Part shown: piece by piece, positions 1 to 42,223 of the stretch
How positions within the stretch are numbered: the stretch's first letter is position 1
Layout of the letters: each line of letters starts with the position of its first letter
DNA from: an uncultured Chloroflexia bacterium
GTDB lineage: Bacteria > Chloroflexota > Limnocylindria > Limnocylindrales > CSP1-4
DNA: 64,000 nt
Reading direction: 5' to 3'
Assembly (NCBI GenBank): GCA_963842695.1
Contig: CAWJHK010000011.1
Span: 52,952 to 116,951 of the forward strand
Program-made: the position numbers and the translations under genes
Notes under the pieces: generated by a model
Databases searched by the model: none
Seen by the model: only the letters and a program-made list of their open reading frames with translations
What the model was told of the DNA's origin: nothing

Positions 1-97
1 TCCTGTCGAGCGCCTCGTCCCAGGTCGCGGGTCGGAGCTCGCCACCCTTCGTGTCGCGCACGAGGGGCTGGGTCAGTCGCACGTAGGGCTTCGCCAC
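1..97 (-). CDS. molybdopterin-dependent oxidoreductase, N-terminal fragment (formate dehydrogenase / YdeP-like); gene runs off the left edge
   Basis: Reverse strand reads GTG-AKPYVRLTQPLVRDTKGGELRPATWDEALDR, preceded by AGGAGG 6 nt upstream. The '...RLTQPL...WDEAL' pattern matches the N-terminal region of molybdopterin oxidoreductases. Confidence 0.35.
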   Translation of the reverse strand, partial: MAKPYVRLTQPLVRDTKGGELRPATWDEALDR

Positions 98-172
98 GCG
101 GTGGCCTCCTGCGGTTGACGACCGGGGAGTGTAGCGCCGGGCTCTGGAGAGCCGACCCTCCGGGCCGTTCTG

Positions 173-2264
173 TCAGGTGGCCCGCGCCGACCGGCGGGCT
201 CGCGGAGCGGCCGCCTCCGGTCCGACCTGGACCCGGCCACGGCCGAAGGCGTCGATCCGCCCCCAGCGACCGGGGATGTCGAGCAGCTCGAGGTGGCCGA
301 TCGATGGCCGGGAGCGCCGGGTCGACGATGAGGTGGTCGCCGATCGGCTCCAGCCCGAGCATCGTGCGGAGGAGGAGCAGCGGCGCCCCGGTCGACCAGG
401 CCTGCGGACCGCACGCCGTCGGGTACTGGACGGGGTACTTGGTCAGCGCCCGGTCGTAGCCGCCGAAGGCCTCCGGCAGGCGACCGTCGAACAGCGCGGC
501 AGCGTCGAGGATGTCCGAGGCGATCCGTGCCGCCTCCTCCTTGAACCCGTACCGTCGCAGGCCCCACGCGATGAACGAGTTGTCGAACGGCCACACGGTG
601 CCGAGGTGGTAGCCGATCGGGTTGTAGCGCGCCTCGCCCACGGCGAGCGTGCGCACGCCCCAGCCCGAATACAGGCGTGGCCCCATCAGGTGCTCGACCA
701 CGGACTTGGCCTTCGCCTCGTCGACGATGCCGCTCCAGAGCAGGAGCCCATTGTTCGACGCCAGCGAATCGACCTGCGCGCCGTCGGCATCGAGCGCCAG
801 CGCGAAGTACCCGCGATCGGCGACCCAGAAGTCGCGGTTGAACCGCTTCTTGAGGTCGTGCGCCTCCTGCTCGAGCCGGTCGGCGTACGCCGGGTCGTTC
901 CAGATCGTGCGCGCGAGCCTGGCGCCACGGAGCTTCGCGTCGTAGGCGTAGCCCTGCAGCTCGCAGGTCGCCCGCGGGAAGCCGGGCAGCCGGCCGTCGC
1001 TGTAGGAGATCGAGTTCCACGAGTCCTTCCAGGACTGGTTCTCGATCCCGGTCTGCTCGTTGCGACGCTTGTAGGAGATGTAGCCGTTGCCCATCAGGTC
1101 GGCGAACTCGTCGATCCAGTTGAGCGCCGCGCGAGCCTCGTACTCCAGGTCGCGGACGAGCTTCCGGTCGCCGGTCCAGCGCTCGTACTCGTCGAGGAGG
1201 ACGACGTACAGCGGGCGTCGCGTCGACCGAGCCGTAGTACGGCGAGTGCGGCCGCTCCTCGAAGGCCGCCATCTCGCCGTAGCGCATCTCGTGAAGGATC
1301 CGGCCCGGATCCTCGTCGCGGAAATCATCGCGGCGGCTGCCCTGCCAGTCGCCGAGCACCCGCAACGTCGTGGCCGCCAGCTCCGGCGTGAACGGCAGCG
1401 TCTGGAGGCTGGTCAGGATGCTGTCGCGCCCGAACATCGTCATGAACCACGGCAGGCCGGCGGCCGGCAGGCTCTTGCCACCGGCGACCGGTGGCGAGAA
1501 CCGGAGCGCGGCGAGGTCGACCAGGCTGCGCCGGTAGGTGGCCATCAACGGGGCGAGATCGCATTCGAGGCGGGGCGCGTCCGCGATCCACCGCTCGAGG
1601 CTCTGGCCCATGTTCGGTCGCGCCCGCTTCTGGCCGCGGTCGTACTTCGGCCGGGCGTAGGTGCCGCCGCACCGGCCCGGGAGGTCACGACGTCGAGGTC
1701 CGTGGTCCAGCTGCCGTGCGGCTCGATCCGGACGGCGAACGTGAAGCCTCCCTCGTCGATGCTGGCCGGCGCCGACGACGAGATGATCGTCTCCCGCACG
1801 AACGTCTCGCGTGAGTAGCGGAGGTGCAGCCGGCCGTCATCGATCCGCGAGTCGTAGCCCCCGACCTTCTTGAGCGCGTCCTTGACCTCGAACAGGTCGG
1901 CGAAGTCGCTGGCCGCGTCGATCCGGACCGAGAGCTCGACCGGCTCGTCCTGGTGGTTGAGGATCGTCAGCTCCTCGTGGAACCCGTTGCCGACCGCGCG
2001 CTCGCGGATGACCGACAGCTTGGCGTCGATGTAGACCGTGCCTGTCCCGGGGACGAGGAAGAAGCGCGACTCGAAGTACTGGAGGTCGTCGATCGAGAGC
2101 GAGTTCAGCTTCTGCCCGTCGATCGTCAGGACCCACTTCGACAGGAAGCGGGTGTCGAACGAGAAGAGCCCGGTCGGCTCGGTCGGCGAGGCTTCGACGT
2201 CGCCGCGTTCGTCGCAGACGATGAACGTGTTCCCGTCGAGGATCCTGACCGTCTGCTGCGCCAT
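173..2264 (-). CDS. glycogen debranching enzyme / amylo-alpha-1,6-glucosidase (GDE_N + GDE_C), with at least 3 apparent frameshifts
   Basis: N-terminal part MAQQTVRILDGNTFIVCDERGD...; catalytic-domain motifs LPWFMTMFGRDSILTSLQ and HEMRYGEMAAFEERPHSPYYGSVDATP; C-terminus ...LLDIPGRWGRIDAFGR, stop TGA at 173-175. GGAGGGG RBS upstream of the ATG at 2264. Reading frame breaks near 1215 and 1550-1610. Confidence 0.75.
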
Positions 2265-2289
2265 CGTCAGCCCCTCCGCTTGCCGACGG

Positions 2290-2648
2290 TGCGAGCGGAC
2301 GCCGTCATCTTGCGTCCCGTGGGTGCCGGGAACAGCCGCTGGAACCGGATCAGGAGACGCCGGATCGCCTTCGATCACGACCTTGCCGCGCAGGATCGAC
2401 GCCATGGCGTTGGCCCGGCCGCTGACCAGGTCGTCGAAGAGGCCCGGCGTCCGTCCGGACGACGCAGTCGGCCGTCGCCGCCCGCGTGCGAGACCGTGAC
2501 GTCGCCACGGCGAACGTCGACCCGCCACTGCTCGCGCTCGCTCGTCGTCGTCGAGGTCGAACCGGATGCTGCCGGTCGCCCGCGCCAGTCTCGGCTCCCG
2601 GCCACGCTCGGCCAGCGCCTCGAAGAAGTCGGACGTCGGATCAACCAT
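2290..2648 (-). CDS. SCP2 (sterol-carrier-like) domain protein, frameshifted
   Basis: Segments DFFEALAERGREPRLARATGSIRFDL, WRVDVRRGDVTVSHAGGDG and LVSGRANAMASILRGKVVIEGD lie in different frames. Together they are typical of small actinobacterial SCP2 proteins. Confidence 0.4.
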
Positions 2649-2866
2649 GGTGTCTCCCCCACATTCCTGTCGGCCGGCCCTCGTGCCGGCGCGGCCTCAG
2701 CGGTATTCGTCTCGCGCCTTCGGGTCGGCGCGAAGAAGACCCGGAACAGGACGACGAAGCTGACGATCAGCGTGATGCGCGAAGGCGATCATCGCGATGT
2801 AGGCGACGCCCTGGAACTGCTCGAGCTCGGGCTGGAGCAGGACCGCCATCACGATCGCGGTCCCGA

Positions 2867-4480
2867 TCAGCTGGCCGACGACGATGATCCCGACCGTCGC
2901 CTGGCGGCCGATGTCGCTGACACGCTCGAGATCGACGTCTCGAGCCCCTTCGTGTCGACCTCGACCACGAACTTGCCCTTGTTGAACTGGTCGATCCAGC
3001 TGAGAGTGCCGCGCCCTCGAGCGACGGCACCTTGCGGGCGAGCTCCTTGCCGATCCGGACGGCGCTCGCCTGGAGCTGCTTCTGGATCTTCTCCGGGCGT
3101 GAACGAGTCGAGCAGCGCCGCCCGCGCCTCGGTCACGGCCGCCTCGCCGAGGTCGATGTCGAACGACAGGGCGCGCGCCGTCTCCTCGGCCTGGATGACG
3201 GCCTTGATCGCCAGCGTCAGCTGGCTGTCGAGCTGGAGCGCCGTTGTCGAAGACGGCCGACAGGAACGCCCCGAGCGCGTCGCCGAGCGACGTCGCCTTG
3301 CCGTAGATGAGGTACTGGCGGGCGAGCCGGTCGATGTCGTCGCGGTAGCGCGGCCTCGTCGAACCCGCGGGTCGTCTTGCCGAGCGCGAGCAGCCCGTCG
3401 CCGATGCCCGGGATGTCGACCTCCTTGATCGAGTAGATCAGCCCGAGCAGGTCGACCCGCTGCTGGGCGTCGAGCTGCCCGACGAGCCCGAGGTCGAGGA
3501 AGATGATCTGCTTCGAGATCGGGTCGGCCAGGATGTTGCCCGGGTGCGGGTCGCCGTGGAAGAAGCCGTCGACGAGGACCTGCTTGATGATCGAGCGGAT
3601 GAACACGGTCCCGAGCTCGGTCGTGTCGAAGCCGGCCTCGCGCAGCTCGTCCGCCTTCGAGATCTTGATGCCCTTGACGAACTCCATCGTGATGACGCGC
3701 TGGCCCGACAGCTCGTCGTAGACCGAGCGGGACGTGGATCTCCGGGAAGCGCTGCATGCCGTCCGCCAGGCGGCGCGCGTGGTAGGCCTCGTTGCGGTAG
3801 TCGAGCTCCTTGAGGACGCCCTGCCGCGAACTCCGCGACGATCGCCCGGAGGTTGACCTTGCGGGCGACGGCGAAGCCGCCGCTCGGCGACCTTGGCGAG
3901 CTCCTGGATGACGCCCGAGGTCGGCCTGGGTCTTGGCCAGGATCCGCGGTCGCTGGACCTTGACCGCGACCAGCGTCCCGTCGTGGAGGCGTCGCCTGGT
4001 GGACCTGCGCGGTCGACGCCGCGGCGAACGGGACCGGGTCGAACGTCTCGTACAGCGCCTCGGGCGGCGCGCCGAGCTCCTTGGTGACGATCGCGACGAC
4101 GTCCTCGTAGGCGAACGGCGCCGCCTCGCTCTGGAGCTTCGACAGCTCCGCGATCCACTCGGGCGGCAGGATGTCGCCCCGGCTCGCCATCATCTGGCCG
4201 ATCTTCACGTAGGTCGGCCCGAGCTGCTGGAGCATCGCCACGATCCGCTCCGGCCCGGTGGCGTCGCCGTCAGCTCGTCCGTCGTCGCCGAGGACGCGCC
4301 GCGCGAACCAGCGGCGGACGTCGCCGATCGGCGTGTCGGCTCGAGGGCGATGTCGAGGCTCGTCGTGTAGATCAGGTTGTAGACCTGCTGGAGGCGCAGG
4401 TTCTCGATGATGACGTTGCGTCGCGGCGTCGGCAGCGATTCGAGGAAGCCCCAGATGCCGCGGCTCCGGTCGGCGCTGAG
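2867..4480 (-). CDS. ABC1/UbiB-family atypical protein kinase, with at least 3 apparent frameshifts
   Basis: Segments across three frames: LGPTYVKIGQMMASRGDILPPEWIAELSKLQSEAAPF, VITMEFVKGIKISKADELREAGFD..., FHGDPHPGNILADPISKQIIFLDLG and C-terminal ...NKGKFVVEVDTKGLE. Stop at 2867. Confidence 0.7.
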
Positions 4481-4489
4481 GTCCGGCCG

Positions 4490-4901
4490 GTTGAGGCCGA
4501 GGACGGCGTCGATGACCGTCGACAGGACCGTGTAGAGGGCCGCCGCGACGATGACCCAGAGGAGCGTCGGCTGCGGCGACGTCGGCGATCTTGATCGGCG
4601 CGATGAACGAGGTGATGTAGATCGCGATCGCGTTGATGATCACGACGAAGAAGCCCATCGTCGAGAACAGGAGGCGGCCGGTGAGCGCGACGAGGACCGG
4701 CCGCGCGAACCGGTTGACGAGCACCAGGACGGCGGCCCACGACGACGAAGCCGACGATGCCGGCGCCGCGGAGGGCGATGATCGGCGCCGAGTTCGGCGC
4801 CGAACGGGAACGGCTGCTCGACGCGTGATGAGTCCGAGCACCAGGACGATGACGAGGAGGATGAGCGCGTCGAGCACCACCTCGACGATGAAACGGCGCA
4901 T
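4490..4901 (-). CDS. DUF360 / 4-TM membrane protein (phage-holin-4 superfamily-like), frameshifted; possibly continuous with the downstream kinase
   Basis: MRRFIVEVVLDALILLVIVLVLGLI..., PVLVALTGRLLFSTMGFFVVIINAIAIYITSFIAPIKI and LWVIVAAALYTVLSTVIDAVLG. No stop was seen before the kinase N-terminal segment in the stitched frame. Confidence 0.4.
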
Positions 4902-5007
4902 CGCGACCCTCCTCGAGCGATCCGGCCCGATGACGCGGCCATCGGCGGCACTCGGTCATTGTCCGGTCATCGCGCCGGCACGGCGCGCGACGGCTGCCGG
5001 ACGGCCG

Positions 5008-6081
5008 TCAGGCGCAGGGCGACGCCTCGGCAGGCGATGCCGGCCGGCGTCGACGACCTCGCCGATCCACCAGTGCTCGACGCCGGCCGCATCGAACGCG
5101 GCCTCGACCGCGGCGACGCTGCTCCGGCGGGACCGCGGCGAGCAGGCCGCCCGAGGTCTGCGGGTCGTGGGCGAGGGTGACGAGCTCCGGCGGCACGCCG
5201 GCGCCGACGTCGAGCGAGTCCGCGACGAAGCGGCGGTTGTGGGCCGCGCCGCCGGTCTCGACGCCGGCCGCGGCGAGCTCGAGCGCGCCGGGCAGCGCCG
5301 GCAGGGCGGCCGCCTCGAACGCGAAGCGCGTGCCCGACGCGCGGGCCATCTCGAGGCCGTGGCCGAGCAGGCCGAAGCCGGTGACGTCGGTCGCGGTCCG
5401 GATGCCGGCCGCGACCAGGGCGTCCGCGGCGGCCCGGTTCAGGCGGCGCATCCCGTCGATGGCGGTGGCCAGGTCGGCCTCGCTCGTCCGGCCCTGGCGG
5501 TGACCCGACACGAGGAGCCCGGTGCCGAGCGGCTTCGTCAGGACGAGCCGGTCGCCCGGTCGGGCGCCGCCCTTGCGCAGCAGCTGGTCGGGATGTGCGG
5601 CGCCGATGACCGCCAGCCCGTACTTCGGCTCCGGGTCGCGGATCGTGTGGCCGCCGGCCAGCGTGCCGCCGGCCTCGCGGACCTTCGCCGAGGCGCCCGC
5701 GAAGATCTCCGCCAGCACGTCGCGCGGCAGCTCCTCGGGGAAGGCCGCGATCGACAGGGCGAACAGGACCCGGCCGCCCATCGCGAACACGTCGGACAGC
5801 GCGTTCGCGGCGGCGATCTCGCCGAACGTCCGCGGGTCGTCGACGAGCGGCGGGAAGAAGTCGAGCGTGCCGATGATCGCGAGGTCGTCGCTGACCCGGT
5901 AGGCGGCCGCGTCGTCGGGCGGGTTGAGGCCCGGCGATCAGGTCGTCGGGCGCGGCCGCGGCGTCTCGGCGCCCAGACCGGCCAGCGCCTCGGCCAGCAG
6001 GTCGGCGCCGAGCTTCGCGGCGCAGCCGCCGCAGTCGGTCAGCTCGGTCAGGCGGAACGGCGGCGGTTCGAGCGCGGTCAT
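5008..6081 (-). CDS. selD: selenide, water dikinase (selenophosphate synthetase); Cys version, frameshift near the C-terminus
   Basis: MTALEPPPFRLTELTDCGGCAAKLGADLL (both Cys codons are TGC); ...RLVLTKPLGTGLL..., TDVTGFGLLGHGLEMA and AHDPQTSGGLL. C-terminal AFDAAGVEHWWIGEVVDAG lies in another frame. Confidence 0.8.
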
Positions 6082-6144
6082 GACTCGATGATAGGCGCAT
6101 CGCCGCGACCGCGACGCGCGACCGTCCCGCGCTACCATCGCGGC

Positions 6145-6241
6145 GGGAGCGGACGGGTCCCGGTGGGTCCCCTGGTCTTCAACACCAGTGGCGCGGCGCT
6201 CGGCGCGGCGCGGTGGGTTCGACTCCCACGCGTTCCCGCCA
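6145..6241 (+). tRNA. selC: tRNA-Sec (selC), anticodon UCA, 97 nt, 8/5 cloverleaf
   Basis: Acceptor GGGAGCGG pairs with GCGUUCCC (7 bp + 1 mismatch), then discriminator G and CCA. D-arm GGGUCC-CGGU-GGGUCC (6 bp, 4-nt loop). Anticodon arm CUGGU-CUUCAAC-ACCAG gives anticodon UCA. Long GC-rich variable arm. T-arm GUGGG-UUCGACU-CCCAC. Sits between divergent selD and selA. Confidence 0.8.
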
Positions 6242-6252
6242 CGGAGGCGTCA

Positions 6253-7650
6253 TGTCGTGCCGGATCGCCCGCGTCCCCCGAGCGTCGAGCGGCTGCTCGC
6301 CGCCGTCCGGCCGCAGCTGCGCCGGCGCGGTCCGACGCGGACGCGGTCACCGAGGCGGCCCGGGCCGTGGTCGCGACGAACGGGCCCGGCTCGCGGCCGG
6401 CGAGGCGCCCGACCGACGTCGACCAGGCTCGCCGACGACGTCCGGACCCGGCTCGGCGCGTTCGCCGGATCCGCCGGACAGGGCTGACTCCGCGTCATCA
6501 ACGCGACCGGGCGTCGATCCTCCACACGAACCTCGGCCGCGCGCCATGGCCGGCGCCGCGATCGAGGCGGCCGCCGCGCGCGGCAGCCGGCTACTCGCTG
6601 CTCGAGCTCGACCGCGAGACCGGCCGCCGCGGGCCGCGCTTCCGCGCCGCCGAGGAGCACCTCATCGCCCTGACCGGCGCCGAGGACGCGCTGGTCACCA
6701 TCAACAACGCCGCAGCCCTCGCGCTGGCCGTCGGGCTCGCCGGCCGCCGCGGCGTCGCCGTCTCGCGCGGCGAGCTCGTCGAGATCGGCGGCGGCGTCCG
6801 GATCCCGGAGATCGTCCGGCGGGCCGGGGCGCGGCTGGTCGAGGTCGGGACGACGAACCGGACGCGCGCCGCGGACTTCGAGGCGCCGCTGGCCGACGGC
6901 CGGGCGAGCCGTCGTCCTGCGCGTCCACCCGTCGAACTTCGCCCAGACCGGCTTCGTCGAGGCGCCGGACCCGACCGAGCTCGCCCGGCTCGCCCACGCG
7001 CACGGCGCGATCGTCGTCGACGACCTCGGGAGCGGCGCGCTGCTCGACACGGCGGCTTCGGGCTCGCCCACGAGCCGATGCCGGCCGAGCGGCTGGCCGC
7101 CGGCGCCGACCTCGTCACGTTCAGCGGCGACAAGCTCGTCGGCGGGCCCCAGGCGGGACTGGTCGTCGGCCGGGCGGACCTCATCGCGCCGGATCCGGCG
7201 GGACCCGCTGGCCCGGGCGATGCGGCCGGACAAGGTCGACGCTCGCGGCGCTCGCCGCGACGCTCGGGCTGTACCGGGCCGGCCTGGCGACGACCGAGAT
7301 CCCCGTCTGGCGGATGATCGCGAGGCCAGCCGCGGACGCTGCGGGCCCGCGCCGAGCGACGTCCTGGCGGCGGTCTCGCAGGCCGAACCGCGACGCGGGT
7401 CGAGGTCGGCGATCTGACGTCGACGGTCGGCGGCGGGTCGCTGCCCGGCGAGACGCTCCCATCGGTCGGGCTGCTCGTCGGCGGCGCGGGGCGGCGGCAC
7501 TGGCGGCCCGGCTGCGCGCCGGCGACCCGGCCGTCATCGGCCGGATCGAGGACGGAGCCGTCGTGCTCGACCTCCGGACGGTCGACCGGACGTCCGACGG
7601 CGACCTCGGCGCGAGCGCTCGACGGCGCGCTTGGCGGAGCGCGCTCCGGA
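6253..7650 (+). CDS. selA: L-seryl-tRNA(Sec) selenium transferase, multiple frameshifts
   Basis: N-terminal [15 protein letters not shown]. Core [27 protein letters not shown]...[25 protein letters not shown]...[19 protein letters not shown] site [25 protein letters not shown]-terminal [11 protein letters not shown]...IPVWRMIA...[17 protein letters not shown]. Confidence 0.8.
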
Positions 7651-9490
7651 TGACCGTCGTCGTCGGCACGGCCGGCCACATCGACCACGGCAAGACGACG
7701 CTGCTGCGGGCGCTGACCGGGATCGACGCGGACCGCCTGCCCGAGGAGCGCCGGCGCGGGCATGACGATCGACGTCGGCTACGCCCACCTGGCCTTCGCC
7801 GACGGCACCGAGCTCGACTTCGTCGACGTCCCCGGCCACGACCGGCTCGTCGGCAACATGCTCGTCGGCGCGGGCGAGATCGATGCGGCGATGCTCGTCG
7901 TGGCCGCCGACGACGGGCCGCGCGCCCAGACGCTCGAGCACCTCGCGCTGCTCGACGCGCTCGGGATCCGGCACGGGCTGGCGGTCGTCACGAAGGCGGA
8001 CGTCGCCGGCCCGGACCGGACGACGGAGGTCGTGGCGGCGACGTCGGCGGCTGCTCGACAGGGACGTCGCTCGCCGGCTCGCCGATCGTCGCGGTGTCGG
8101 CCGGTCGACGGTGGCGGGATCGACGCGGTGCGGGCGGCGCTCGACGGTTCCGCGATCGGGTCGCTCGCCGACGCGCCCGCCGGCGATGCGTCGCGGCCGT
8201 CGCGCCTGGCGATCGACCGGGTCTTCGCGGTCAAGGGCCGTGGGGTCGTCGTGACCGGCACGCTGCGCGGCGGGTCCGTGAGCAAGCGGCGCGACGCTCC
8301 GGCTCGTGCCGGGCGACCGGTCCGTCCGCGTCCGCGAGGTCCAGGTCCACGGCCGGACGGTCGAGTCCGCCGGTCCGCGGCCGGACCGCGCTGAACCTCG
8401 CCGGGGTCGAGCCGGCCGAGCTCCACCGCGGGCTCGTCCTGACCGACGACCCGGCGGTCGTGGCGAGCGACCGGCTGCTCGTCCGCGCTCCGAAGCCGCC
8501 TCCCGGACCGGACGCGGGCGCGGCTCCATCTCGGGACGGCCGCGGTCGATGCCGCGGTCGGCCGGAGCGGGCGCGACGCGCTCGACCTGCCCGACGGGTC
8601 ACTCGGGCGGCGATCCTCCGTCTCGCCGCGCCGGTCGCGGTCGCGATCGGCGACCGGCTCGTCCTCCGGCGGCCGGCGTCGCGCGATCCGATCGTCGGCG
8701 CGGTCGTGCTCGATCCGATGCCGGCGCGCGGCATCTCGCGGCGTCGCCAGACGGCCGAGCGCGTCGGGCCGGCTCGCCGCCGCGGTATCGGCGCACGACG
8801 AAGCCGGCATCGAGGCCGCGCGGCTCGACCTCCACGGAGCAGCTCGTGACGGCCGGACACGAGGCGCGCCTCGCGCCGGACGTCGCCGAGGCCGCAGCCG
8901 CCAGCGTGCTCGGTGCGGTGGCGACCGAGCCGACGCTGGCGGCCGCCCGGACCGCCGGAGCGCGTGCCATCCGGCGGCTCGCGACGGTCGACCGCAGCGT
9001 CGCCGCCGGAGGCGGCCGCGAGGGTCGATCGACGACCTCGTCCGGGATCGGCGCCTCGAGCGTGATGGTGCCGGTCTCGGCATCCCGGGCACGATCGCGA
9101 CGTCGCCCGCGCCCGACGCGGCGGTCGACGGCGCGATGGACCGGCTCGAGGCTGCGCTGGCGACCGCGGCCCGCCCGAGCCTCGCCGACGCCGCCCGCGT
9201 CGGCCGGTTGCCCGCCGGACGGCGTCCGCGAGCTCGAGCGACGCGGCCGGATCGTCGTGCTCGAGCCCGACCTCGCCTACGCCGTCTCGACCTACCGGGA
9301 GATCGAAGCGACGGCGCTGTCGATGGCCACCGCGGGGCCGCTGACGCCGGCCGCGCTGCGCGACGCGACCGGCACGAGCCGCAAGTACGTCATGGCCATC
9401 CTCGCCGACCTCGACCGCCGGGCGTCCTCCGCCGGACTCCGGACGGACACGTGCCCGGACCTCGCGCGAACGCGTCGGGTCCGCGACACG
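7650..9490 (+). CDS. selB: selenocysteine-specific elongation factor, multiple frameshifts
   Basis: [37 protein letters not shown]|[30 protein letters not shown]... A G insertion in a GGG run breaks the frame at about 7758. C-terminal winged-helix [27 protein letters not shown]. Confidence 0.8.
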
Positions 9491-10077
9491 ATGAGGGACG
9501 GGCGTCCGCTGAGCGCCGTGATCCTCGCCGGCGGACGGTCGTCCCGCTTCGGTCGCGACAAGCTGGCCGAGCCGATCGAGGGGCGATCGCTGCTCGATCG
9601 CGCAGTCGACGCCGTCGCGCCGCTCGCCACCGAGGTCCTCGTCGTCTCCGCACCAGGGGCCGAGCTCACGACCCACCTGGGCGCGCGGATCATCCACGAC
9701 CCGGAGCCTTCGAAGGCCCGCTGGCGGGAACGCTGGCCGGGCTCGCGGCCGCGACCGGTGACGCCGTCCTCGTCGTCGGCGGCGACATGCCGACGCTCGT
9801 CCCGGATGTGCTCGAGTCGATGGCGAGCGAGCTCGACGACCCGGCGATCGAGGCGTGCGTCCTCGACCACGACGGTCGCGCGAGGCCGTTGCCGATGGTC
9901 GTCCGCCGAGCCCCGGCGATCGCCGCTGCGCGGACGCTGCTCGATCGGCGTGAGCGTCGCCTGCGCGCATTGATCGATGCGCTCGAGACGCGATCGATCC
10001 CCGAAGCGACCTGGCGCCGCCTCGATCCCGACGGCGAGACGCTCCGCGACATCGACACGCCGGCAGACCTCGGCTGA
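9491..10077 (+). CDS. MobA/MocA-like molybdenum-cofactor nucleotidyltransferase, one frameshift near 9715
   Basis: MRDGRPLSAVILAGGRSSRFGRDKLAEPIEGRSLLDRAVDAV...GPLAGTLAGLAAATGDAVLVVGGDMPTLVPDVLESM. Follows selB with no intervening stop in the stitched frame. Confidence 0.65.
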
Positions 10078-10102
10078 TCGCGCGGGCCTGCGCGGCGGGC
10101 GC

Positions 10103-10140
10103 CACACGAAACCCCGCGGACAGACGAAAACCCCTGCTGG
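10103..10140 (-). terminator. intrinsic terminator: GC hairpin CCCCTGC-TTCCTCCA-GCAGGGG followed by TTTTC on the minus strand
   Basis: Perfect 7-bp stem with a U-rich tail immediately downstream of the 10194..10400 minus gene. The hairpin is also read after mobA on the plus strand, but without a U tail. Confidence 0.55.
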
Positions 10141-10193
10141 AGGAAGCAGGGGCTCTCGCGTATTGGGAGGGAAGAGCGGTGGCTGAGGAGGAG

Positions 10194-10400
10194 TCAGCCC
10201 CCGTACGGGTAGTTCTTGAGGTTCGGAAGCGTGGGTCCGCTGGGCTCGAGACCGAGGGTCCGACGAACCTCGGCGGCACCCGATCCGATACGCGACCGAA
10301 GGCTGCGGCGCTCGGCCAACGAGGCCAATCGACGATCCTTGGCCTCGGACCGCATGTGCTCCAGGTGGTCGTTGACGTAGATGACGGCGACGGCGTTCAC
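10194..10400 (-). CDS. small hypothetical protein (68 aa), possible ribbon-helix-helix DNA-binding fold
   Basis: GTG start with AAGGAG 6 nt upstream; intrinsic terminator downstream. Sequence MNAVAVIYVNDHLEHMRSEAKDRRLASLAERRSLRSRIG... shows a beta-strand plus two helices pattern. Confidence 0.5.
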   Translation of the reverse strand: MNAVAVIYVNDHLEHMRSEAKDRRLASLAERRSLRSRIGSGAAEVRRTLGLEPSGPTLPNLKNYPYGG

Positions 10401-10427
10401 TGGTCTCTCCTTTCCGCTCCCTCGGAC

Positions 10428-12189
10428 TCAGTTCCGTGGTGCATGGCCATCATCGCCCTGCGGCCATGGCCGGCGAACACCGACATCCGGCGCCGAATCG
10501 GCATCGTCATGCGTCCATGCGTCAGCCCTCGAGCTCGGGCCTCTCGTGCACGGCATGCCATCGATGAACGTGGCGACGACGCGCGCGTCGCCGATCGCGC
10601 CGGACCCGCGGTCGAACAGGTCCCGGTCCAGGATGACGAGATCCGCCGACTTGCCGACCTCGATCGAGCCGACCTCGTCGTCGACGTGATTGACCCAGGC
10701 GGAGCCGAGCGTGAACGCGGTGAGCGCGTCGGTGAGGTCGATCCGCTGCTCGGGCAGGAACGGCTCCTTCTTGCCGCGGTGCTCGACGCTCACCCGGTTG
10801 ACCGCCACCTCCATCTGGGCCAGGGGATCGGCGGTCGAGACGCTCCAGTCCGAGCCCATCGCCAGCCGCGCCCCGGCCCGCACGAGCGATCCGAACGGGT
10901 ACATCCGCGCGACACGCTCGGCCCCCAGGAACGGGATGGTCAGCAGCTCGAGCTGATCCTCGAGGGCGGCCCAGTCGGCCTGGGCATTGGCCGCGACGCC
11001 GAGCTCCCGGAACCGCCCGAGTCGTCCGGGTGGATCAGCTGGATGTGGGCGATGTGGGGCCGCGTGTCGGTCGGACCGTTGACCCGCCGGGCGGCGGTCG
11101 ACCGCGTCGAGCGCCTCGCGCACCGCCCGGTCGCCGATCGCGTGGACGTGGGTCTGGAAGCCCAGCGCGTCGACCGCGGCCACGGACGCGCCCGAAGGCC
11201 TCCGGGTCGATCATGCTACGGCCCGTCTCGCCGTGATGCCGCCCTGCCCGTCGAGATACGGCTCGAGCAGCGTCCCGCTGAAGTTCTCCAGCACCCCGTC
11301 GGCGATGAACTTGACGCTCGTCGGGGCATAGCGCGGCGCGGTCGTCCGGCTCCGCCGCTCGATCGAGCTCCCCGATCTGGGCGTCGTCGCGCGTCTCGTC
11401 CCATCCAAGAGCCCCGACGACGCGGGCCGTCAGCTCGCCGCGGGCGGCCAGCGTCGGGTAAGCGACGTCCTCCATCGCGGGCCGGACGATGGGCGTCCTG
11501 CCATCCGGTGATGCCGAGGGCATGAAGCTCGGCCTGGGCGAGTCGCAACCCGGTGACCCGACCTCCGTCGGGGATCGTCGGGAGCAGGCCGGTGACGAGG
11601 TCGCAAGCCGCCCTCCTGGAGCGTGCCCGAGGGCTCGACCGTCGGTCTCGCGCTCGATGCGGCCGTCGAGCGGGTCAACGGTCCTCGCGGTGATCCCGGC
11701 CAGCTCGAGCGCGCGGCTGTTGACCCAGCCGCTGTGCCCGTCGCGGCTCTCGAGATAGACCGGCCGATCCGGCTCGATCCGATCGAGATCGTGCCGGGAC
11801 GGGATCCCGCGTGCGAAGTCGGCCATCGACCAGCCGCCACCGCGGATCCAGGACTCGTCGGGATGAGCGCCCGCGTAGAGCGGCGATCCGCTCGAGGTAG
11901 ACGTCCAGGCCCCGCAGCCGCGTCAGGTCGCAGCGAAGCATCTCCACCCCGGACGACACGGGATGGACGTGCGCATCGATGAACCCCGGCGTGACCGACC
12001 TGCCGCGGAGCTCGACGACCCGCGTCCGCGGTCCGATCCGCGCCGCGACATCGACATCCTCACCGACCGCCACGATCCGCCCGCTCGCGACGGCGATCGC
12101 CGATGCGCGCTCCGGGCCGGATCCATCGTCACGACGCGGCCGCCACGCAGGACCAGGTCGGCGGGACGGTCGGGGGATCCGGCGCTCAC
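10428..12189 (-). CDS. Amidohydro_3 (YtcJ-like) metal-dependent amidohydrolase, 3-4 frameshifts
   Basis: ADLVLRGGRVVTMD...; GRSVTPGFIDAHVHP; SVKFIADGVLENFSGTLLEPY; HVHAIGDRAVREALDA...; GSDWSV...; C-terminal VGKSADLVILDRDLFD. Confidence 0.7.
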
Positions 12190-12284
12190 CCGCCGAGGAT
12201 GCCAGCCCTGTCCACTGGCCGGCCCGGCATCCCGTCCGCCGCGACGGCCTGACCCGCCGTCGCGCGGCCGTCTAGCATCCGGCG

Positions 12285-12834
12285 GTGACCTCGGTCCATC
12301 TCCTCCACGCCGGCTATACCGGCGGGCACGTCGGCAGCACGCGTCGCGCTCGTTCGCGATGGCGACGCCCTGATCGTGGTCGACCCCGGGATGGTCGCGC
12401 GCCGCTCGCTGATCCTCGATCCGCTGGCCGAGCTCGGGGTCCGGCCCGAGGCGGTCACCCATGTCTTCCTGAGCCACCACCACCCCGACCACACGATGAA
12501 CTGCGCCCTCTTTCCGAACGCCGAGGTCGTCGACTTCTGGGCCCGCTACATCGACGACCTCTGGCTCGACCACGACGGCGACGGCCATCGCCTGGCACCG
12601 AACAGCGAGCTGTGGCTGACGCCCGGTCACAGCGAGGAGGACGCGACGCTCGTCGTCACGGCCGACGACGGCGTGTATGCCATGACCCACCTGTGGTGGC
12701 ACTCGGACCGGACGCCGGTCGTCGACCCGTTCGCGTCGGATCAGTCCGCTCTCGAGCGCGGCCGTGCGCGGGTCCTGGCCGTCGCCGATGTCGTCATCCC
12801 GGGCCACGGGGCTCCGTTCCGGGTCCGCGACTGA
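12285..12834 (+). CDS. MBL-fold metallo-hydrolase, one frameshift near 12345
   Basis: MTSVHLLHAGYTGGHVGST|VALVRDGDALIVVDPG...THVFLSHHHPDHTMNCALF...LTPGHSEEDATLVV...VIPGHGAPFRV. Confidence 0.6.
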
Positions 12835-12840
12835 CCTCGG

Positions 12841-14432
12841 TCAGGCGGGTCCGGGCGGCTCCGCGGTCGCCGGGGCAGGACCCACGGCCGGTCTCGTGCG
12901 TCGCTCGCGCAGACCCACCCACGACACGGCCGACCCGACGGCCAGCAGCACGGCACAGATGATCATCGCCAGGTGGAAGGCGTCCATCGACGCCGCGTTC
13001 GCGGCCGCGACCTGGTGGGTGGGGACCCCGGCGGGTGGCGGATTGAGCGGCTGGAAGGCGTGCCGGACGTCCGGGTCGCTCGTGTCGAGTCCGGTCGGCG
13101 GCCCCAGCGACGCGTAGTACGCGGCGCTGATCGCGATGAACACGAGCGCCCCGATGAGCGGCTGGCCGACCCGGGAGATCGAGTTGTTGATCGCCGACCC
13201 GAGCCCCGAGAACCGGCCGGGGACCGAGCCCATCAGCGTGCTCGTCAGCGGCGCGACGACGAACGAGATGCCCAGGCCGAACAGAAGCGTGTAGGGCAGG
13301 ACGTCGATGAACGCGTCGGTCGGCGGGACGAGCGACGACGGCCTGTCGATCGATGCCAGCCACGGATCGGAGTCGACCGGCAGGCGGGCGTACCAGAGAA
13401 GGGCCAGCGACATCAGGATCGGGCCGGTCACGAGGAACCGTCGCGCCCCGATCCGCCCGGCGACCGTGCCGATGCGCGTCGAGAGGAGCGTCAGCATGAT
13501 GCTGGTCGGGATGCCGATCAGCCCGGCCGCCATGGCCGTGTAGCCGAGCACACCCTGGAGCACGACCGCCGTGTAGAACTGGGTCACGTACAGCCCGCCG
13601 TAGATGAAGAACGTGGCGAGGTTGACCGTCGCGAACGCACGCGAGCGAAACAGGTCCAGCGGCACCAGGGGGTTCGGACGGCGGGCCATCAGGACCGGGA
13701 AGGCGATGAGGCAGACGGCACCGACGGCGATCGCGATCCACGCCCCGGGATCCGCCCAGGCGTTCGCCTGGCCACGGATGAGGCCGAACGCCAGCCCGCC
13801 GACGGCCAGAGCAGCGACGAACGCGCCCAGCCAGTCGAAGCGGCCGGTCGTCTCGGTGTCGCGGGATTCGGCGACGTGCCGGAGCGTCGCCCATACGGCG
13901 AAGGCGAGCAACGGGACGTTGATGAGGAACGCGAACCGCCAGCCGATGGTGTCGACCATCGTCCCGCCGACGACCGGTCCGAGGAGGATGAGGGCCGACG
14001 TCGACGCCGCCCAGATGCCGAACGCCCGCCCGCGCTCCGGGCCGTCGAAGGCGTGGGTGATGAGCGCCAGCGAGCCGGGGATCAGGAGCGCCCCGGCTGC
14101 GCCCTGGGCGAGCCGGAAGACGACCAGCCATTCCAGCGTGGGAGCCAGCCCGCAGAGGGCCGACGTCGCGGCGAACCCGACGAGCCCGATGACGTAGATC
14201 CGCCGCCGGCCGTAGTGGTCGGCCAGGGCCGCCGGACAGGATCAGCAGCGCGGCAAGGACTGCGAGATACCCGCCGACGACGTAGGCCTGGCCCTCGAGG
14301 ACGCCGATGAGCGACGCCGGCAGATCCTGGCCGATGTGCTTGAGCGCCGCGTTGACGATCGTCCCGTCAAGGAACACCGCGCCCGACCCCATCACGGTGC
14401 AGATGAGCGTCCAGCGCTGGCGCGAGGTCATA
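12841..14432 (-). CDS. MFS transporter, DHA2 (EmrB/QacA, 14-TM) family, frameshifted
   Basis: MTSRQRWTLICTVMGSGAVFLDGTIVNAALKHIGQDL... (N-terminus); C-terminal two-thirds intact in the 12841..13959 frame, with typical DHA2 TM pattern. Confidence 0.75.
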
Positions 14433-14460
14433 GCGCGGCAGTGTCGCATAGACTCCCGCC

Positions 14461-15171
14461 ATGCCCGGACCCGTGGCGCTCGTCGGCGCCGGAGAGTTCC
14501 TACCCGAGATGGCGGAATTCGACGCCGGCCTCCTCGCAGCGACCGGCCGCGCCCGGCCCCGAGTGGCGATCCTGCCCACCGCGTCCTTCCCGGACGGCGA
14601 GGAGGTCTTCACCCGCTGGGCGACGATGGGCGTGTCGCATTTCGGCGAGCTCGGCGCCGAGGTCGAGCCCGTGCTCGTCCGCGACCGGATGGGGGCCGAC
14701 GACCCGGCAGCGGCCCAGGCGATCGGCGAGGCGGATCTGGTCTACCTGTCGGGCGGCAAGCCCTCGTACCTGATCGGGGTGCTCGACGGCAGCGCGGTGG
14801 GCCAGGCACTCGTGGACGCCCACCACCGCGGTGCCGTCCTGGCGGGCTGCTCGGCCGGCGCGATGGTCCTCGCCGGTCATGCCTTCGACTTCCGGGTCCG
14901 GATCGCTCCCTGGCCGCTGCGCTGGCGGTCGGGCCTCGGGTTCGTCGCGGGCGCCTCGGTCATCCCGCACTACGATGCATGGCCGGAGCCTCTGTCGGCG
15001 CTCATCGCCCTCCAGGCGCCGCGCGGGTCGCACGTGCTCGGCATCGACGAGGAGACGGCCGTCGTCGGGCGCGACGGGTCGTGGCAGGTCCACGGCCGCT
15101 CGCGGGTGACGGTCTGGCGCGGGCGACGACGCGACCGCTATCGCGCCGGCGAGATCTTCCGGATCGACTGA
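14461..15171 (+). CDS. S51 peptidase family protein (peptidase E / cyanophycinase-like, type-1 glutamine amidotransferase fold)
   Basis: Intact 236 aa; RVAILPTASFPDGEEVF..., DLVYLSGGKPSYL and AGCSAGAMVL (Ser nucleophile motif). Confidence 0.7.
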   Translation: MPGPVALVGAGEFLPEMAEFDAGLLAATGRARPRVAILPTASFPDGEEVFTRWATMGVSHFGELGAEVEPVLVRDRMGADDPAAAQAIGEADLVYLSGGKPSYLIGVLDGSAVGQALVDAHHRGAVLAGCSAGAMVLAGHAFDFRVRIAPWPLRWRSGLGFVAGASVIPHYDAWPEPLSALIALQAPRGSHVLGIDEETAVVGRDGSWQVHGRSRVTVWRGRRRDRYRAGEIFRID

Positions 15172-15179
15172 ATCTGAAC

Positions 15180-15200
15180 GGCGCCCCGGATGGGGGCGCC
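15180..15200. terminator. bidirectional GC hairpin GGCGCCCC-loop-GGGGCGCC between convergent genes
   Basis: Perfect 8-bp stem in the 55-bp gap between the S51 gene end and the zinc-ribbon gene end. Confidence 0.45.
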
Positions 15201-15226
15201 GTGGATGAGTGCGTCTGGTCGCGCGA

Positions 15227-15566
15227 TCAGTCGGGGCGGACGGTCCGGAAGCAGTCCGAGCAGTAGACCGGGCGGTCCATCCGCGGCTTGAACGGGACCT
15301 GGGCCTGGCCGCCGCACGACGAGCAGATCACCGCGAAGTACTCGCGCATCGGCCGGTCGTCACCGCGCTCGTAGCCGCGCGGGCCACCGATGTCGCGGGC
15401 GTCATAGCCACTGTCGCGGCTCGCGCGTCGGCTGGCGCGGCAGCTCGAGCAGCGCTTCGGGTCACTGACGAACCCCTTCTGCTGGTAATACTCCTGGTCG
15501 GCAGCGGAATGGATGAATTCCACCCCACAATCGACACAGCTCAGGGTTCGATCTAGGTAGGTCACG
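15227..15566 (-). CDS. double zinc-ribbon protein (two CxxC...CxxC modules), 112 aa
   Basis: The best start is a GTG with GGAGGA 6 nt upstream, not the upstream ATG in the track (which is preceded by CCTCCTCC, an anti-SD-like sequence). Repeat 1 CVDCGVEF...KRCSSC; repeat 2 CSSCGG...VYCSDC. Confidence 0.6.
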
Positions 15567-15814
15567 AGTGCTCCTCCGGGATGCGTAATCGCTGTCGAGT
15601 GCGCCTCGTGGGGCGACCGCATCGAAGGTCGGAGGAGGGTGCGAGACTGGCGCTAGCGGCCGGGACGCATTCCACGATTCACGATGTCGGCTCCCCGGCC
15701 AGGGCGCACCGGTTCAGTGGCTGGAGCATACAACGGGTCTCGGAATCCGTCCGGCGCCGAGGTTCCACGCACGGAGTCGGCCATCCGACACTGTCTTTCC
15801 GGTGGCTGGCGACC

Positions 15815-15833
15815 GTGACAACGAACCTGTCAC
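15815..15833. promoter_or_regulatory. inverted repeat GTGACA-N7-TGTCAC upstream of the sbcD-like gene
   Basis: Perfect 6-bp arms about 160 bp upstream of the sbcD start, in a 367-bp intergenic region. Confidence 0.25.
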
Positions 15834-15989
15834 AATGGCGCCCGATCATCGGAGTCGGCGAGCGGGGAGTCATGGGGGCGCCTCGCTCGCGCCATGCCGG
15901 GGCCATCACCGTCGAGCCCGGTCGTGGGCGATCCGTGGCTGACTCCGTCCGTCCAGGCGCGTCCGAGAGGGGAGGTCAGCAGCAGCGCG

Positions 15990-25620: not shown

Positions 25621-26631
25621 GTGCCGAACCTCGCCTTCCCGCGCCCGCGCCCGCTGCCGAGGCCCCGCGGCCGCCGTCGCACCGCGGCCGACGACGGGAT
25701 CACGGCCGTCGATGTCGCCGCCCCCGACATCATCGAGTCGAGCGGCATCCGCTGGATCCACATCGAGTCGCCGCGGACGGTCGACCGCGACTGGCTCGAG
25801 GAGCATTTCGACTTCCACCCGCTCGACTACGAGGACGTCTACTCACGCAACAACCGGCCCAAGCTCGACCAGTACGACGACTACGTCTTCATCGTCCTGC
25901 ACTTCCCGATGTTCGAGAAGGAGACCGGCCGGATCCTGACGGCCGAGATCGACCTGTTCATGGGGCCGGACTACCTGATCACGCTGCCCAACATCCCGCT
26001 GCCACCGCTGACGGCGATGTTCGAGCGCTACCGGGAGAAGGAGGACCTCCGCGAGGCGACGTTCTCCAAGGGCAGCGGCTACCTGCTGTACAAGATCGTC
26101 GACACGTGCGTCGACGCGTCGTTCCCGATGCTCCGCAAGATGGCGCTCAAGCTCGACCGGATCGAGGACGACATCTTCGAGGGTCGCTCGTCTGAGATCG
26201 TTCGAGACATCTCCGAGGCCAAGCAGGAGATCATCAACTTCCGCCGGATCGTCCGACCGCAGACGGCCGTCCTGCGCGACCTCGAGCGGACCAAGCAGCG
26301 CTACCTCCAGGAAGAGCTGGAGATCTACTTCGACGACATCTCCGACGCGGCCGAGCGGATCTGGGACACGCTCGAGAACTACAAGGAGGTCATCGAGGCG
26401 CTCGAGTCGACCAACGAATCGGTCCTGTCGCACCGACTGAACGACTCGTTCCGGGTGCTGACCGCGGCCAGCGTCGTGCTGCTGCCGCTGACCCTCGTCG
26501 CCAGCATCTTCGGGATGAACGTACCGGTCCCGGGCGAGAACGCGGAGTTCGCGTTCCTGGCGATCCTGTTGCTGATGGCGCTCCTGCTGATCGTGCTGGT
26601 CGCCTACTTCCGGCGGCGCGGCTGGCTGTAG
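25621..26631 (+). CDS. corA: CorA-family Mg2+/Co2+ transporter
   Basis: ...IRWIHIESP...HPLDYEDV... cytoplasmic domain; C-terminal two TM helices with the GMN motif (FGMNVPVPGE). Start assigned to an in-frame GTG. Confidence 0.8.
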   Translation: MPNLAFPRPRPLPRPRGRRRTAADDGITAVDVAAPDIIESSGIRWIHIESPRTVDRDWLEEHFDFHPLDYEDVYSRNNRPKLDQYDDYVFIVLHFPMFEKETGRILTAEIDLFMGPDYLITLPNIPLPPLTAMFERYREKEDLREATFSKGSGYLLYKIVDTCVDASFPMLRKMALKLDRIEDDIFEGRSSEIVRDISEAKQEIINFRRIVRPQTAVLRDLERTKQRYLQEELEIYFDDISDAAERIWDTLENYKEVIEALESTNESVLSHRLNDSFRVLTAASVVLLPLTLVASIFGMNVPVPGENAEFAFLAILLLMALLLIVLVAYFRRRGWL

Positions 26632-26705
26632 CCACGGAGCCCCGCGGTAGGATGGACCGGTCCCGGGCCGACGGTGGTGCGGGTCGAACCGAGCAGGCTC
26701 CCGAC

Positions 26706-28355
26706 ATGGCGAACGAGGCGACGACCTCCGACGACACGCTGATCCGGGCCCGCGCAGCCTACGAGCGCCGCGCCTGGGCCGAGGCATACGACGCGCTCGC
26801 CGCGTCCGACGCCCGTGCGCCGCTCGACGGCGCGGACCTCGAGCGGATGGCGATCGCCGCCTACATGCTCGGGCGGCCCGACGACTCCACGGCCGCCGGG
26901 GCGCGAGCCCATCTCGAGGCCGTCCGCACGGGCGACCTCGGCCTGGCGATCCGCTCCGCGTACGGGCTCGGGATGGAGTTCATGCAGCGAGGCGACATGG
27001 CCCAGGGAGGCGGCTGGCTCGCCCGCGGAGCGCGACTCGTGGAGGAGACCGGCTACGACGGGGTCGAGCCGGGGTTCCTGCTGATCCCGCAGGCGCTCCA
27101 GGCACTGATGGCCGGCCGCGCGGAAGATGCGTTCGGCATCTTCGAGCAGGTCGCCGCCATCGCCGAGCGGTTCGACGACGCGGACCTCCGGACGTTCGGC
27201 CGGCTCGGTCGCGGGCAGTCGCTGATCGCCATGGCCGAGACTCGCCGTGGCGTCGCCCTCCTCGACGAGGCGATGACGGCGGTCATCGCCGGCGAGGTCT
27301 CGCCGATCGCGTCGGGGATCGTCTACTGCGCCGTCATCGAGGCGTGCCAGTCCATGTTCGACCTGCGGCGCGCGCAGGAGTGGACCGCGGCGCTGGAGCG
27401 CTGGTGGCGAGTCGCAGCCCGACCTGGTCCCGTTCCGGGGCAACTGCCTCGTCTTCCGCGCGGAGCTGATGCGCTTCCACGGCGCCTGGGCCGAGGCGAC
27501 GGACGAAGCCGAGCGCGCGCGCGAGTGGCTGTCGCGGCCGCCGCCCGAGCCGGCCGTCGGGGAGGCGATCTACCAGCTGGCCGAGCTGGACCGGCTGCGC
27601 GGGGCGTTCGACGCGGCGGCGGCCGGCTATCGCGAGGCCGGGACCTGGGGCCGCCTGCCGGAGCCCGGTCTCGCGCTCCTGCGCCTGGCCCAGGGCGATA
27701 TCGGCGCGGCATCGGCGGCCATCCGGCGTGCGATGGCCGAGGCGACCGACGAGATGGTCCGGGCGAGGATGCTCGAGCCCGCCGCCGAGATCGCCCTGGC
27801 CGCCGGCGACGTGGCCGCGGCGCGCGACGCAGCCGATCGACTCGGCGAGGTCGCCGACGGGCTCGATGCGCCGCTTCTCCGCGCCATGGCGGCCCGGGCC
27901 GACGGCACGGTGCGGCTCGCGGAAGGCGACGTGGCGGGTGCGCTCGCGGTGCTCAGGCGGGCGTGGGAGGCGTGGCGGGACCTCGATGCGCCCTACGAGG
28001 CAGCCCGCGTGCGCGTCCGGACCGCGCGAGGCCTGCCGCCAGCTCGGCGACCTCGAGGGTGCCGCCGGCGAGACCGAGGCCGCCCGCGAGGTGTTCGAGC
28101 GGCTCGGTGCGGCGCCGGATCTGGCCGGGCTGGACGGCCGGGGCCGACGCCGCCGCCCTGCCCGGTGGCCTGAGCGCGCGCGAGGCCGAGGTCCTCCGGC
28201 TCGTCGCGGCCGGGTTGACGAACCGGGCGATCGCCGAGTCCCTGACGATCAGCGAGCGGACCGTCGATCGGCACGTCAGCAACATCTTCACCAAGCTCGA
28301 CGTGTCGACCCGGGCCGCTGCGACGGCCTTCGCCTACGAGCACGGCCTGGTCTGA
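26706..28355 (+). CDS. large LuxR-family transcriptional regulator (N-terminal TPR/helical repeats + C-terminal LuxR HTH), frameshifted
   Basis: C-terminal LSAREAEVLRLVAAGLTNRAIAESLTISERTVDRHVSNIFTKLDV. The N-terminal and middle helical-repeat segments are found in three frames. Confidence 0.7.
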   Translation: MANEATTSDDTLIRARAAYERRAWAEAYDALAASDARAPLDGADLERMAIAAYMLGRPDDSTAAGARAHLEAVRTGDLGLAIRSAYGLGMEFMQRGDMAQGGGWLARGARLVEETGYDGVEPGFLLIPQALQALMAGRAEDAFGIFEQVAAIAERFDDADLRTFGRLGRGQSLIAMAETRRGVALLDEAMTAVIAGEVSPIASGIVYCAVIEACQSMFDLRRAQEWTAALERWWRVAARPGPVPGQLPRLPRGADALPRRLGRGDGRSRARARVAVAAAARAGRRGGDLPAGRAGPAARGVRRGGGRLSRGRDLGPPAGARSRAPAPGPGRYRRGIGGHPACDGRGDRRDGPGEDARARRRDRPGRRRRGRGARRSRSTRRGRRRARCAASPRHGGPGRRHGAARGRRRGGCARGAQAGVGGVAGPRCALRGSPRARPDRARPAASSATSRVPPARPRPPARCSSGSVRRRIWPGWTAGADAAALPGGLSAREAEVLRLVAAGLTNRAIAESLTISERTVDRHVSNIFTKLDVSTRAAATAFAYEHGLV

Positions 28356-32886: not shown

Positions 32887-32887
32887 C

Positions 32888-33675: not shown

Positions 33676-33684
33676 TCGTCTCCC

Positions 33685-34941: not shown

Positions 34942-34951
34942 CGCGACCGGC

Positions 34952-36655: not shown

Positions 36656-36775
36656 CCCGGCTACTCGGTCTTCACCGCATGAAACCTCGGGCCGACGGCG
36701 TCGAGGGCTCCGCCTCGGACCTCGGCGCGGGCTTCGTGGGTTGCCGGGAAGCTGCGTGCCGGGTTCACTCCGTCT

Positions 36776-37671
<896 letters not shown>

Positions 37672-37674
37672 TGG

Positions 37675-39471: not shown

Positions 39472-39600
39472 CGTGGCCTCCGGGCGACGGGGCGTCCATG
39501 GTACGCCCGCCCCGATGGTACGCGGCGACGGTCGGAGTGCCACCGGCCGTTGGTTATCGGGACGTTGCGTTCGTGTTTCGGGTCGCTCCGGGATCGGCGG

Positions 39601-41572: not shown

Positions 41573-41646
41573 GTCGGGACAGCAGGCCCTCCAGCCGTGT
41601 CATCGAATGCGTCCCTCGTCCTCGCCCCGTCAGGGATCGCCGAACC

Positions 41647-42205: not shown

Positions 42206-42223
42206 GACGGCAGGATAGGGCGG

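Follow-up and report, generated by a model that had tools for sequence, protein, structure and literature searches.

The window, a stretch of 64,000 nucleotides (nt) from contig CAWJHK010000011.1 of an uncultured bacterium of the class Limnocylindria (Chloroflexota), very probably carries an ordinary, complete set of genes for the insertion of selenocysteine (Sec), accompanied by a molybdenum (Mo) cofactor gene and lying beside the start of a Sec-type formate dehydrogenase gene, with the frame breaks and the apparent gene fusion in it arising from indel errors of the assembly. An earlier note on this DNA, made from the letters alone, had named selD, the tRNA-Sec gene (selC), selA, selB and a MobA-family gene. 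All of them were present close to where it had placed them, selD on the minus strand and the others following on the plus strand, within positions 5040 to 10077 (Table 1). SelD, SelA, SelB and tRNA-Sec together are the full bacterial Sec-decoding set.

The Sec-insertion genes and their conservation

The window has a GC content of 70 to 78%. Gene identities rest on stitched translations, for which the reading frames were taken from a GC3 (third codon position) phase plot and a self-trained codon-usage Viterbi frame tracker. Stitched SelD scored 355.6 bits with the NCBIfam equivalog model TIGR00476, well above its cut-off of 125. Similarly, SelA reached 393.6 bits with TIGR00474 (cut-off, 267.9) and 349 bits with PF03841, and SelB reached 301.9 bits with TIGR00475 (cut-off, 242.25). 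The domains of SelB were recognized as the EF-Tu-like GTPase (PF00009, 87 bits) and as the C-terminal, SECIS-binding winged helix (PF09107, 47 bits, residues 555 to 597).

The tRNA-Sec was the single tRNA that ARAGORN found in the whole window. Its assignment as a tRNA-Sec, with a UCA anticodon and a long variable arm, was supported by ARAGORN and by Rfam RF01852, where its 61.9 bits exceeded the gathering score of 47. Its sequence was nearly identical to that of seven relatives, in which it occupies the same position. Position 38 of the tRNA, in the anticodon loop (window position 6183), is C here and A in all seven aligned relatives; the discrepancy may be genuine or may stem from a sequencing error.

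selD, reading leftward, and the selC-selA-selB-mobA series, reading rightward, share a divergent intergenic region of 60 nt. The selA stop and the selB start overlap in an ATGA at 7650 to 7653, and an overlap of the type NTGA was found at this junction in 14 relatives, including the closest ones. The ATGA overlaps at selA/selB and, as described below, at selB/mobA imply translational coupling.

A selD-based scan of the GTDB representative genomes yielded 80 loci, with about 40 metagenome-assembled genomes (MAGs) of Chloroflexota, class Limnocylindria, whose SelD proteins showed 73 to 92% identity. The window was collinear with its closest relative, L067, at 81% nucleotide identity over positions 1 to 15858. 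As judged by tblastn, the gene order was kept in about 35 Limnocylindria MAGs: an amidohydrolase gene, then mobA, selB, selA and tRNA-Sec reading in one direction, then selD reading in the other, with fdhA farther along. The linkage of selB to mobA was absent from the actinobacterial loci in the same set. The sel cluster (5040 to 10077) has a GC content of 77%, compared with 70 to 72% in its flanks in the window, and the cluster was likewise 2 to 5 points richer in 10 relatives. A recently acquired "island" was ruled out by the conservation of both the gene order and the raised GC content across the class.

Between selD and fdhA, the window holds a glycogen-debranching enzyme gene, an SCP2-like gene and a gene for a UbiB/ABC1 kinase with an N-terminal membrane domain (175 to 4901, minus strand). 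This insert was shared only with L067; in several relatives, fdhA directly follows selD.

The formate dehydrogenase gene at the window edge

The molybdopterin oxidoreductase gene that the earlier note had seen starting at position 97 and running out of the window corresponds to the first 32 codons of fdhA, which encode the peptide VAKPYVRLTQPLVRDTKGGELRPATWDEALDR. By tblastn, this peptide was identical at 31 of its 32 residues to the FdhA of relative L002 and to orthologues in related Limnocylindria MAGs. The 36-amino-acid edge translation that holds these codons gave weak matches to PF00384 (22.4 bits; cut-off, 24) and to TIGR01591 (16.5 bits, positions 51 to 75). About 26 codons separate the stop of the upstream gene from the GTG at position 97, and the genes of the relatives start at the same place.

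The orthologues of fdhA have about 637 codons. Read with C in place of U, the L002 protein scored 645.8 bits with TIGR01591 over model positions 53 to 672, falling under the cut-off of 666.25 because model positions 1 to 52 are lacking. The N-terminal Fe4S4 domain does not lie on the FdhA polypeptide; in the relatives it forms the C terminus of a separate NuoG-N-like Fe-S protein, which matches TIGR01591 positions 1 to 51. Such a split formate dehydrogenase alpha subunit was seen in L002 (3490 to 11398), L006, L009, L014, L022 and others, beside a NuoE-NuoF fusion gene and FdhD. The NuoE-NuoF fusion, FdhD and NuoG-N-like Fe-S genes, which lie downstream in the relatives, were all absent from the window.

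In each of 30 related loci, an in-frame TGA was found 252 nt after the start, within the active-site motif of the alpha subunit (SNNIDSCNRT-TGA-HAPSVAGL), and in all 30 the UGA is followed, 15 nt on, by the start of a hairpin, GUCGCC-GGUCU-GGCGAC. Its apical loop, GGUCU, presumably resembles that of the Sec insertion sequence (SECIS) of Escherichia coli fdhF. Counted from the GTG at position 97, the Sec codon of the fdhA under study would be expected about 156 nt to the left of the window. The interpretation of FdhA as a selenoprotein is thus supported, through its orthologues. The earlier note had proposed a selenium- and molybdenum-dependent oxidoreductase, either an FdhA-type selenoprotein or a selenium-dependent molybdenum hydroxylase: the former is supported by the TGA in 30 of 30 relatives and by the TIGR01591 match over positions 53 to 672, and the latter is not.

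Table 1. Positions of the genes and other elements discussed, numbered from the first nucleotide of the window
Feature	Positions	Strand	Evidence and remarks
fdhA, formate dehydrogenase catalytic (Mo/Sec) subunit, first 32 codons	2..97	-	GTG at 97-95; runs off the left window edge
Shine-Dalgarno GGAGG of fdhA	107..111	-	Read in the sequence; 9 nt upstream of the GTG
selD, selenide water dikinase, Cys-type (TDCGGCAAK)	5040..6081	-	TIGR00476; ATG at 6081-6079; 3' end uncertain by about 30 nt (frameshifts)
selC, tRNA-Sec, anticodon UCA, encoded CCA	6145..6241	+	ARAGORN (TCA) and Rfam RF01852
Shine-Dalgarno GGAGG for selA	6243..6247	+	Sequence and alignment with relatives; directly after the tRNA 3' CCA end
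selA, L-seryl-tRNA(Sec) selenium transferase	6252..7653	+	Starts with ATG at 6252; its TGA stop, expected at 7651-7653, overlaps the ATG of selB
selB, Sec-specific elongation factor	7650..9494	+	Starts with ATG at 7650; its TGA stop is expected at 9492-9494 (tail and stop reconstructed)
MobA-family nucleotidyltransferase, probably molybdenum cofactor guanylyltransferase	9491..10077	+	PF12804; ATG at 9491; one frame change near 9706
Block of very high indel density	2300..12900		Frame tracker and MAFFT alignment with L067; covers UbiB, selD, the sel operon and the amidohydrolase gene

The MobA-family gene

The stitched protein encoded downstream of selB contained the MobA-like NTP transferase domain PF12804 (115 bits). 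Its best NCBIfam match was MobA, TIGR02665, at 89.2 bits, under the cut-off of 151.85 but above the 61.8 bits of the MocA/YgfJ model TIGR03310. The top sequence matches in the PDB were all MobA proteins (1FR9, 1E5K and 2E8B), and the motifs LAGG..R.G..DK, GPLAG and D-x-P aligned to E. coli MobA (1FR9). In its best family and structural-sequence match, and in the conservation of the N-terminal loop and the motifs, the protein resembles MobA; it differs in being only about 30% identical to characterized MobA proteins and in having no mobB adjacent. In the NCBI and IMG annotations, its exact orthologues go under the names mobA or molybdenum cofactor guanylyltransferase. The LAGG and GPLAG motifs have reportedly been tied to GTP specificity by Neumann et al.; a literature search for MobA/MocA specificity motifs returned nothing relevant. 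Given the family membership and the nearby enzyme that uses bis-molybdopterin guanine dinucleotide (bis-MGD), the transferase is most likely MobA, with a predicted GTP:Mo-molybdopterin guanylyltransferase activity and, its scores lying under all equivalog cut-offs, a nucleotide specificity that is only presumed.

mobA and the amidohydrolase gene converge, and the 479 nt between their ends (10075 to 10553) have no coding signal; neither a terminator-like hairpin nor an Rfam family was found in them.

Frame breaks and the selB-mobA junction

None of selD, selA, selB and mobA is intact as an open reading frame (ORF) in the given sequence. The frame tracker registered about 3 frame changes in selD, 13 in selA, 13 in selB and 1 in mobA, some 30 in total, and the in-frame TGA of selD at 5938 is false, belonging among the changes in that gene. 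Across the first 15 kb or so, the coding frame switched every 100 to 200 nt, compared with mostly long single-frame genes in the remaining 48 kb. All-frame translation revealed frame-jumping protein sequence in every gene of the left part, namely, those for the glycogen-debranching enzyme, the SCP2-like protein, UbiB, selD, selA, selB, mobA and the amidohydrolase. In the MAFFT alignment with L067, non-triplet gaps amounted to about 10 per kb at 2 to 13 kb, versus 1 to 3 per kb on either side, and the block dense in single-base indels spans at least eight unrelated genes. The pieces in the correct frame were free of nonsense codons, and every one of them showed 70 to 90% amino acid identity to the relatives. 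When the window was searched for other selenoprotein genes, the only in-frame stops inside coding segments were the frameshift artifact in selD and a gene boundary at 42224. Among the relatives, matches in several pieces were concentrated in "MFD" MAGs, which we take to be nanopore assemblies. We infer that the frame breaks, the in-frame TGA of selD and the SelB-MobA fusion ORF all stem from consensus indel errors, made where about 10 kb of a long-read-type assembly had poor support.

The earlier note had also pointed to the lack of any stop between selB and the MobA-like gene and had found this unusual. The observation is literally correct, as a stop-free ORF in frame 3 (8306..9973) leads from the C-terminal winged-helix region of SelB into MobA, but the supposedly unusual read-through is explained by indel noise. 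The window retains an ATGA at 9491 to 9494 in which the selB stop overlaps the mobA start. Of 31 loci in the relatives, 23 passed a strict test for overlap of the selB TGA with the start of mobA, the junction reading GTGA, ATGA or TTGA, and two more were accepted on inspection, which makes 25 of 31. Five of the six exceptions were "MFD" MAGs with matches in shifted frames or in several pieces; in the sixth, L039, there was a spacer of 746 nt.

Two bases appeared to be missing from the selB tail of the window when it was read against the relatives. One is a G in the run at 9420 to 9422, whose loss shifts the selB frame right after ...ILADLDRR, and the other, judged against L067, lies between 9484 and 9489 and its loss moves the tail off the TGA frame. 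Together, the two deletions place the body of selB in the mobA frame and hide the TGA, and two 1-nt corrections within the last 75 nt of selB suffice to restore an L067-like tail and stop. In the GC-rich relatives, the mobA frame is open for hundreds of nt upstream, so that any such indel error yields a fusion ORF. The apparent SelB-MobA fusion is, as read from the sequence, most simply an artifact of an indel-ridden stretch of the assembly. The same artifact as ORF 8306..9973 is seen in a public predicted protein of 804 amino acids (P0025, an NCBI/ENA record on a contig of 80388 bp), in which a frameshift has falsely joined SelB to MobA through an out-of-frame, Arg/Pro-rich "linker."

Alternative explanations

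We give hardly any credence to a genuine SelB-MobA fusion protein in this organism, even though the stop-free ORF joins the winged-helix end of SelB to the N terminus of MobA and a fusion-like protein has entered public data. The two genes are separate, with the NTGA overlap, in 25 of the 31 relatives; the window itself keeps the overlap, two single-nucleotide corrections away from the L067-type tail; and the linker of the fused ORF, like that of P0025, is an out-of-frame Arg/Pro-rich sequence and not a conserved linker. A decaying sel locus, in which the 30 or so disruptions would be real mutations of a strain that has lost Sec decoding, is a very improbable reading as well. The broken state of all four protein genes and the lack of a link between the indels and homopolymer runs would suit it, but indel density is equally high in the unrelated neighbors (UbiB, the SCP2-like gene and the amidohydrolase gene), all within one contiguous block of about 10 kb. 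An error origin is favored over pseudogenization because unrelated genes are hit alike, the correct-frame pieces are free of nonsense codons and keep their 70 to 90% identity, the tRNA-Sec is intact and essentially identical to those of the relatives, and frameshifts also occur in housekeeping genes in other parts of the window, transketolase among them.

A further alternative is that the transferase is a cytidylyltransferase of the MocA/YgfJ type, or that it assists a selenium-dependent molybdenum hydroxylase in some other way (the labile-selenium cofactor trait), and is not a MobA that works for formate dehydrogenase. Its scores lie under the MobA equivalog cut-offs, it matches TIGR03310 with an E value of 8e-17, and SelD is common to all selenium-utilization traits (PMC5322559). 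However, the 61.8 bits with TIGR03310 compare with a cut-off of 186.45, the MobA models score 25 to 30 bits above MocA, and PucB reaches only 24 bits. In addition, the LAGG and GPLAG motifs are present as in E. coli MobA, the conserved neighbor is an enzyme of the bis-MGD type, close to which the relatives encode FdhD, and inspection by eye of the stitched translations for the rest of the window disclosed no gene of the xanthine dehydrogenase family and no YqeB or YqeC gene. Taken together, these data make a MocA-type accessory highly unlikely. The selenium-dependent molybdenum hydroxylase itself was rejected on the same grounds, namely, the MocA score under its cut-off, the absence by eye of xanthine dehydrogenase, YqeB and YqeC from the rest of the window, and a linked enzyme that, in the relatives, is of the dimethyl sulfoxide (DMSO) reductase family, which carries bis-MGD.

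Several observations weigh against the account preferred here, that of a complete Sec-insertion set with mobA beside a Sec-type formate dehydrogenase gene in an error-prone stretch of assembly. The Sec codon and hairpin of the fdhA under study would fall outside the window, their status being deduced from the relatives. The hairpin behind the UGA is essentially invariant owing to protein constraint and offers no covariation; its folding energy was no better than that of shuffled sequences (z = -0.63, in a GC-rich context), and an Rfam search with the UGA region of a relative gave only chance-level hits and no matching family. The stronger evidence for Sec is the universal TGA at the active site, followed by about 550 further in-frame codons, beside a complete sel set. 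The MobA protein lies below every equivalog cut-off: compared with the 151.85 bits set for TIGR02665, the window protein reached 89.2, and clean relatives gave 92.6 and 95.8. A consensus scan of 5900 to 10700 found no promoter or terminator. Finally, the indels were not enriched in homopolymer runs, so that the classic signature of long-read errors is absent, and their probable origin in error rests on the other evidence given above.

Proposed working of the locus

From their families, SelD would make selenophosphate, SelA would turn Ser-tRNA(Sec) into Sec-tRNA(Sec), and SelB would bring the latter to a UGA codon with a hairpin behind it. Their client is probably the catalytic subunit of formate dehydrogenase, the gene for which starts at the window edge (97..2, minus strand). 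MobA would most likely add GMP to Mo-molybdopterin, giving the bis-MGD of formate dehydrogenase. mobA is required for all enzymes of the DMSO reductase family, in which formate dehydrogenase is included (PMC7759655). selC, selA, selB and mobA are probably cotranscribed as one unit, and such an operon would supply both special components, Sec and bis-MGD, of one enzyme. A bolder proposal, which we regard as doubtful, is that the selC-selA-selB-mobA series of Limnocylindria is a dedicated, translationally coupled "maturation operon" that delivers Sec and bis-MGD together to a single enzyme, an unusual split, NAD-linked Sec-formate dehydrogenase with no Fe4S4 domain on its catalytic subunit, the divergent MobA being a specialized paralogue and not a housekeeping enzyme.

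Comparison with known systems

FdhA is a classic bacterial selenoprotein. E. coli has the same four components (selAB, selC and selD) and the same type of client enzyme (fdhF), whose active-site motif, ...CARV-U-HGPSV, aligns with the FdhA motif of the relatives. In E. coli, however, these genes are dispersed and mobA belongs to a separate mobAB operon, whereas the genes of the window are clustered and translationally coupled. With the NAD-dependent formate dehydrogenases of the FdsABG type, the relatives share the NuoE/NuoF-like and NuoG-N-like Fe-S modules and an FdhD encoded beside the catalytic subunit. They differ in that their alpha subunit is split, the catalytic protein beginning at position 53 of the formate dehydrogenase alpha model without the Fe4S4 domain, and in that their catalytic residue is Sec.

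In the mycobacterial Sec locus, selD and selC lie upstream of selA-selB, with the selenoprotein gene fdhA nearby (PMC13449736). The present locus is alike in having selC between divergent selD and selA genes, in keeping selA and selB together, and in the formate dehydrogenase alpha gene, where a hairpin comes after an in-frame UGA (here, in the relatives). It differs in the joining of mobA to selB by a 4-nt overlap, in its Chloroflexota host, and in its formate dehydrogenase, which is NAD-linked and cytoplasmic, has its alpha subunit split and is not FDH-O/N-like. Thus, the layout of selD and selC-selA-selB near a Sec-type fdhA is already known from mycobacteria, and the coupling of selB to mobA is the only, and small, addition. 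No report of a selB-mobA linkage was found in the searchable literature; conserved in the class, the coupling is a modest but logical extension of the known layout. The stop-start coupling of the two genes would be a neat form of coregulation of two rare cofactors of one enzyme, and it leaves the understanding of either pathway unchanged.

Judging from this locus, soil Limnocylindria would decode UGA as Sec for formate dehydrogenase. For annotation, it follows that gene callers will split fdhA at the UGA and that, in noisy long-read assemblies of high GC content, they make false SelB-MobA fusions, of which the 804-amino-acid protein is a case already public.

Other features of the window

Sparser frameshifts elsewhere in the window split the genes for transketolase (41744 to 44380), a sugar kinase (46376 to 47283) and a LuxR-type regulator (26629 to 28352). 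Reading of the stitched translations also revealed an apparent pentose phosphate cluster on the minus strand (32488 to 44380), with pgl, opcA, zwf, a gnd-like gene, a tal/pgi fusion-like gene and tkt, interspersed with two ORFs for secreted or repeat proteins.

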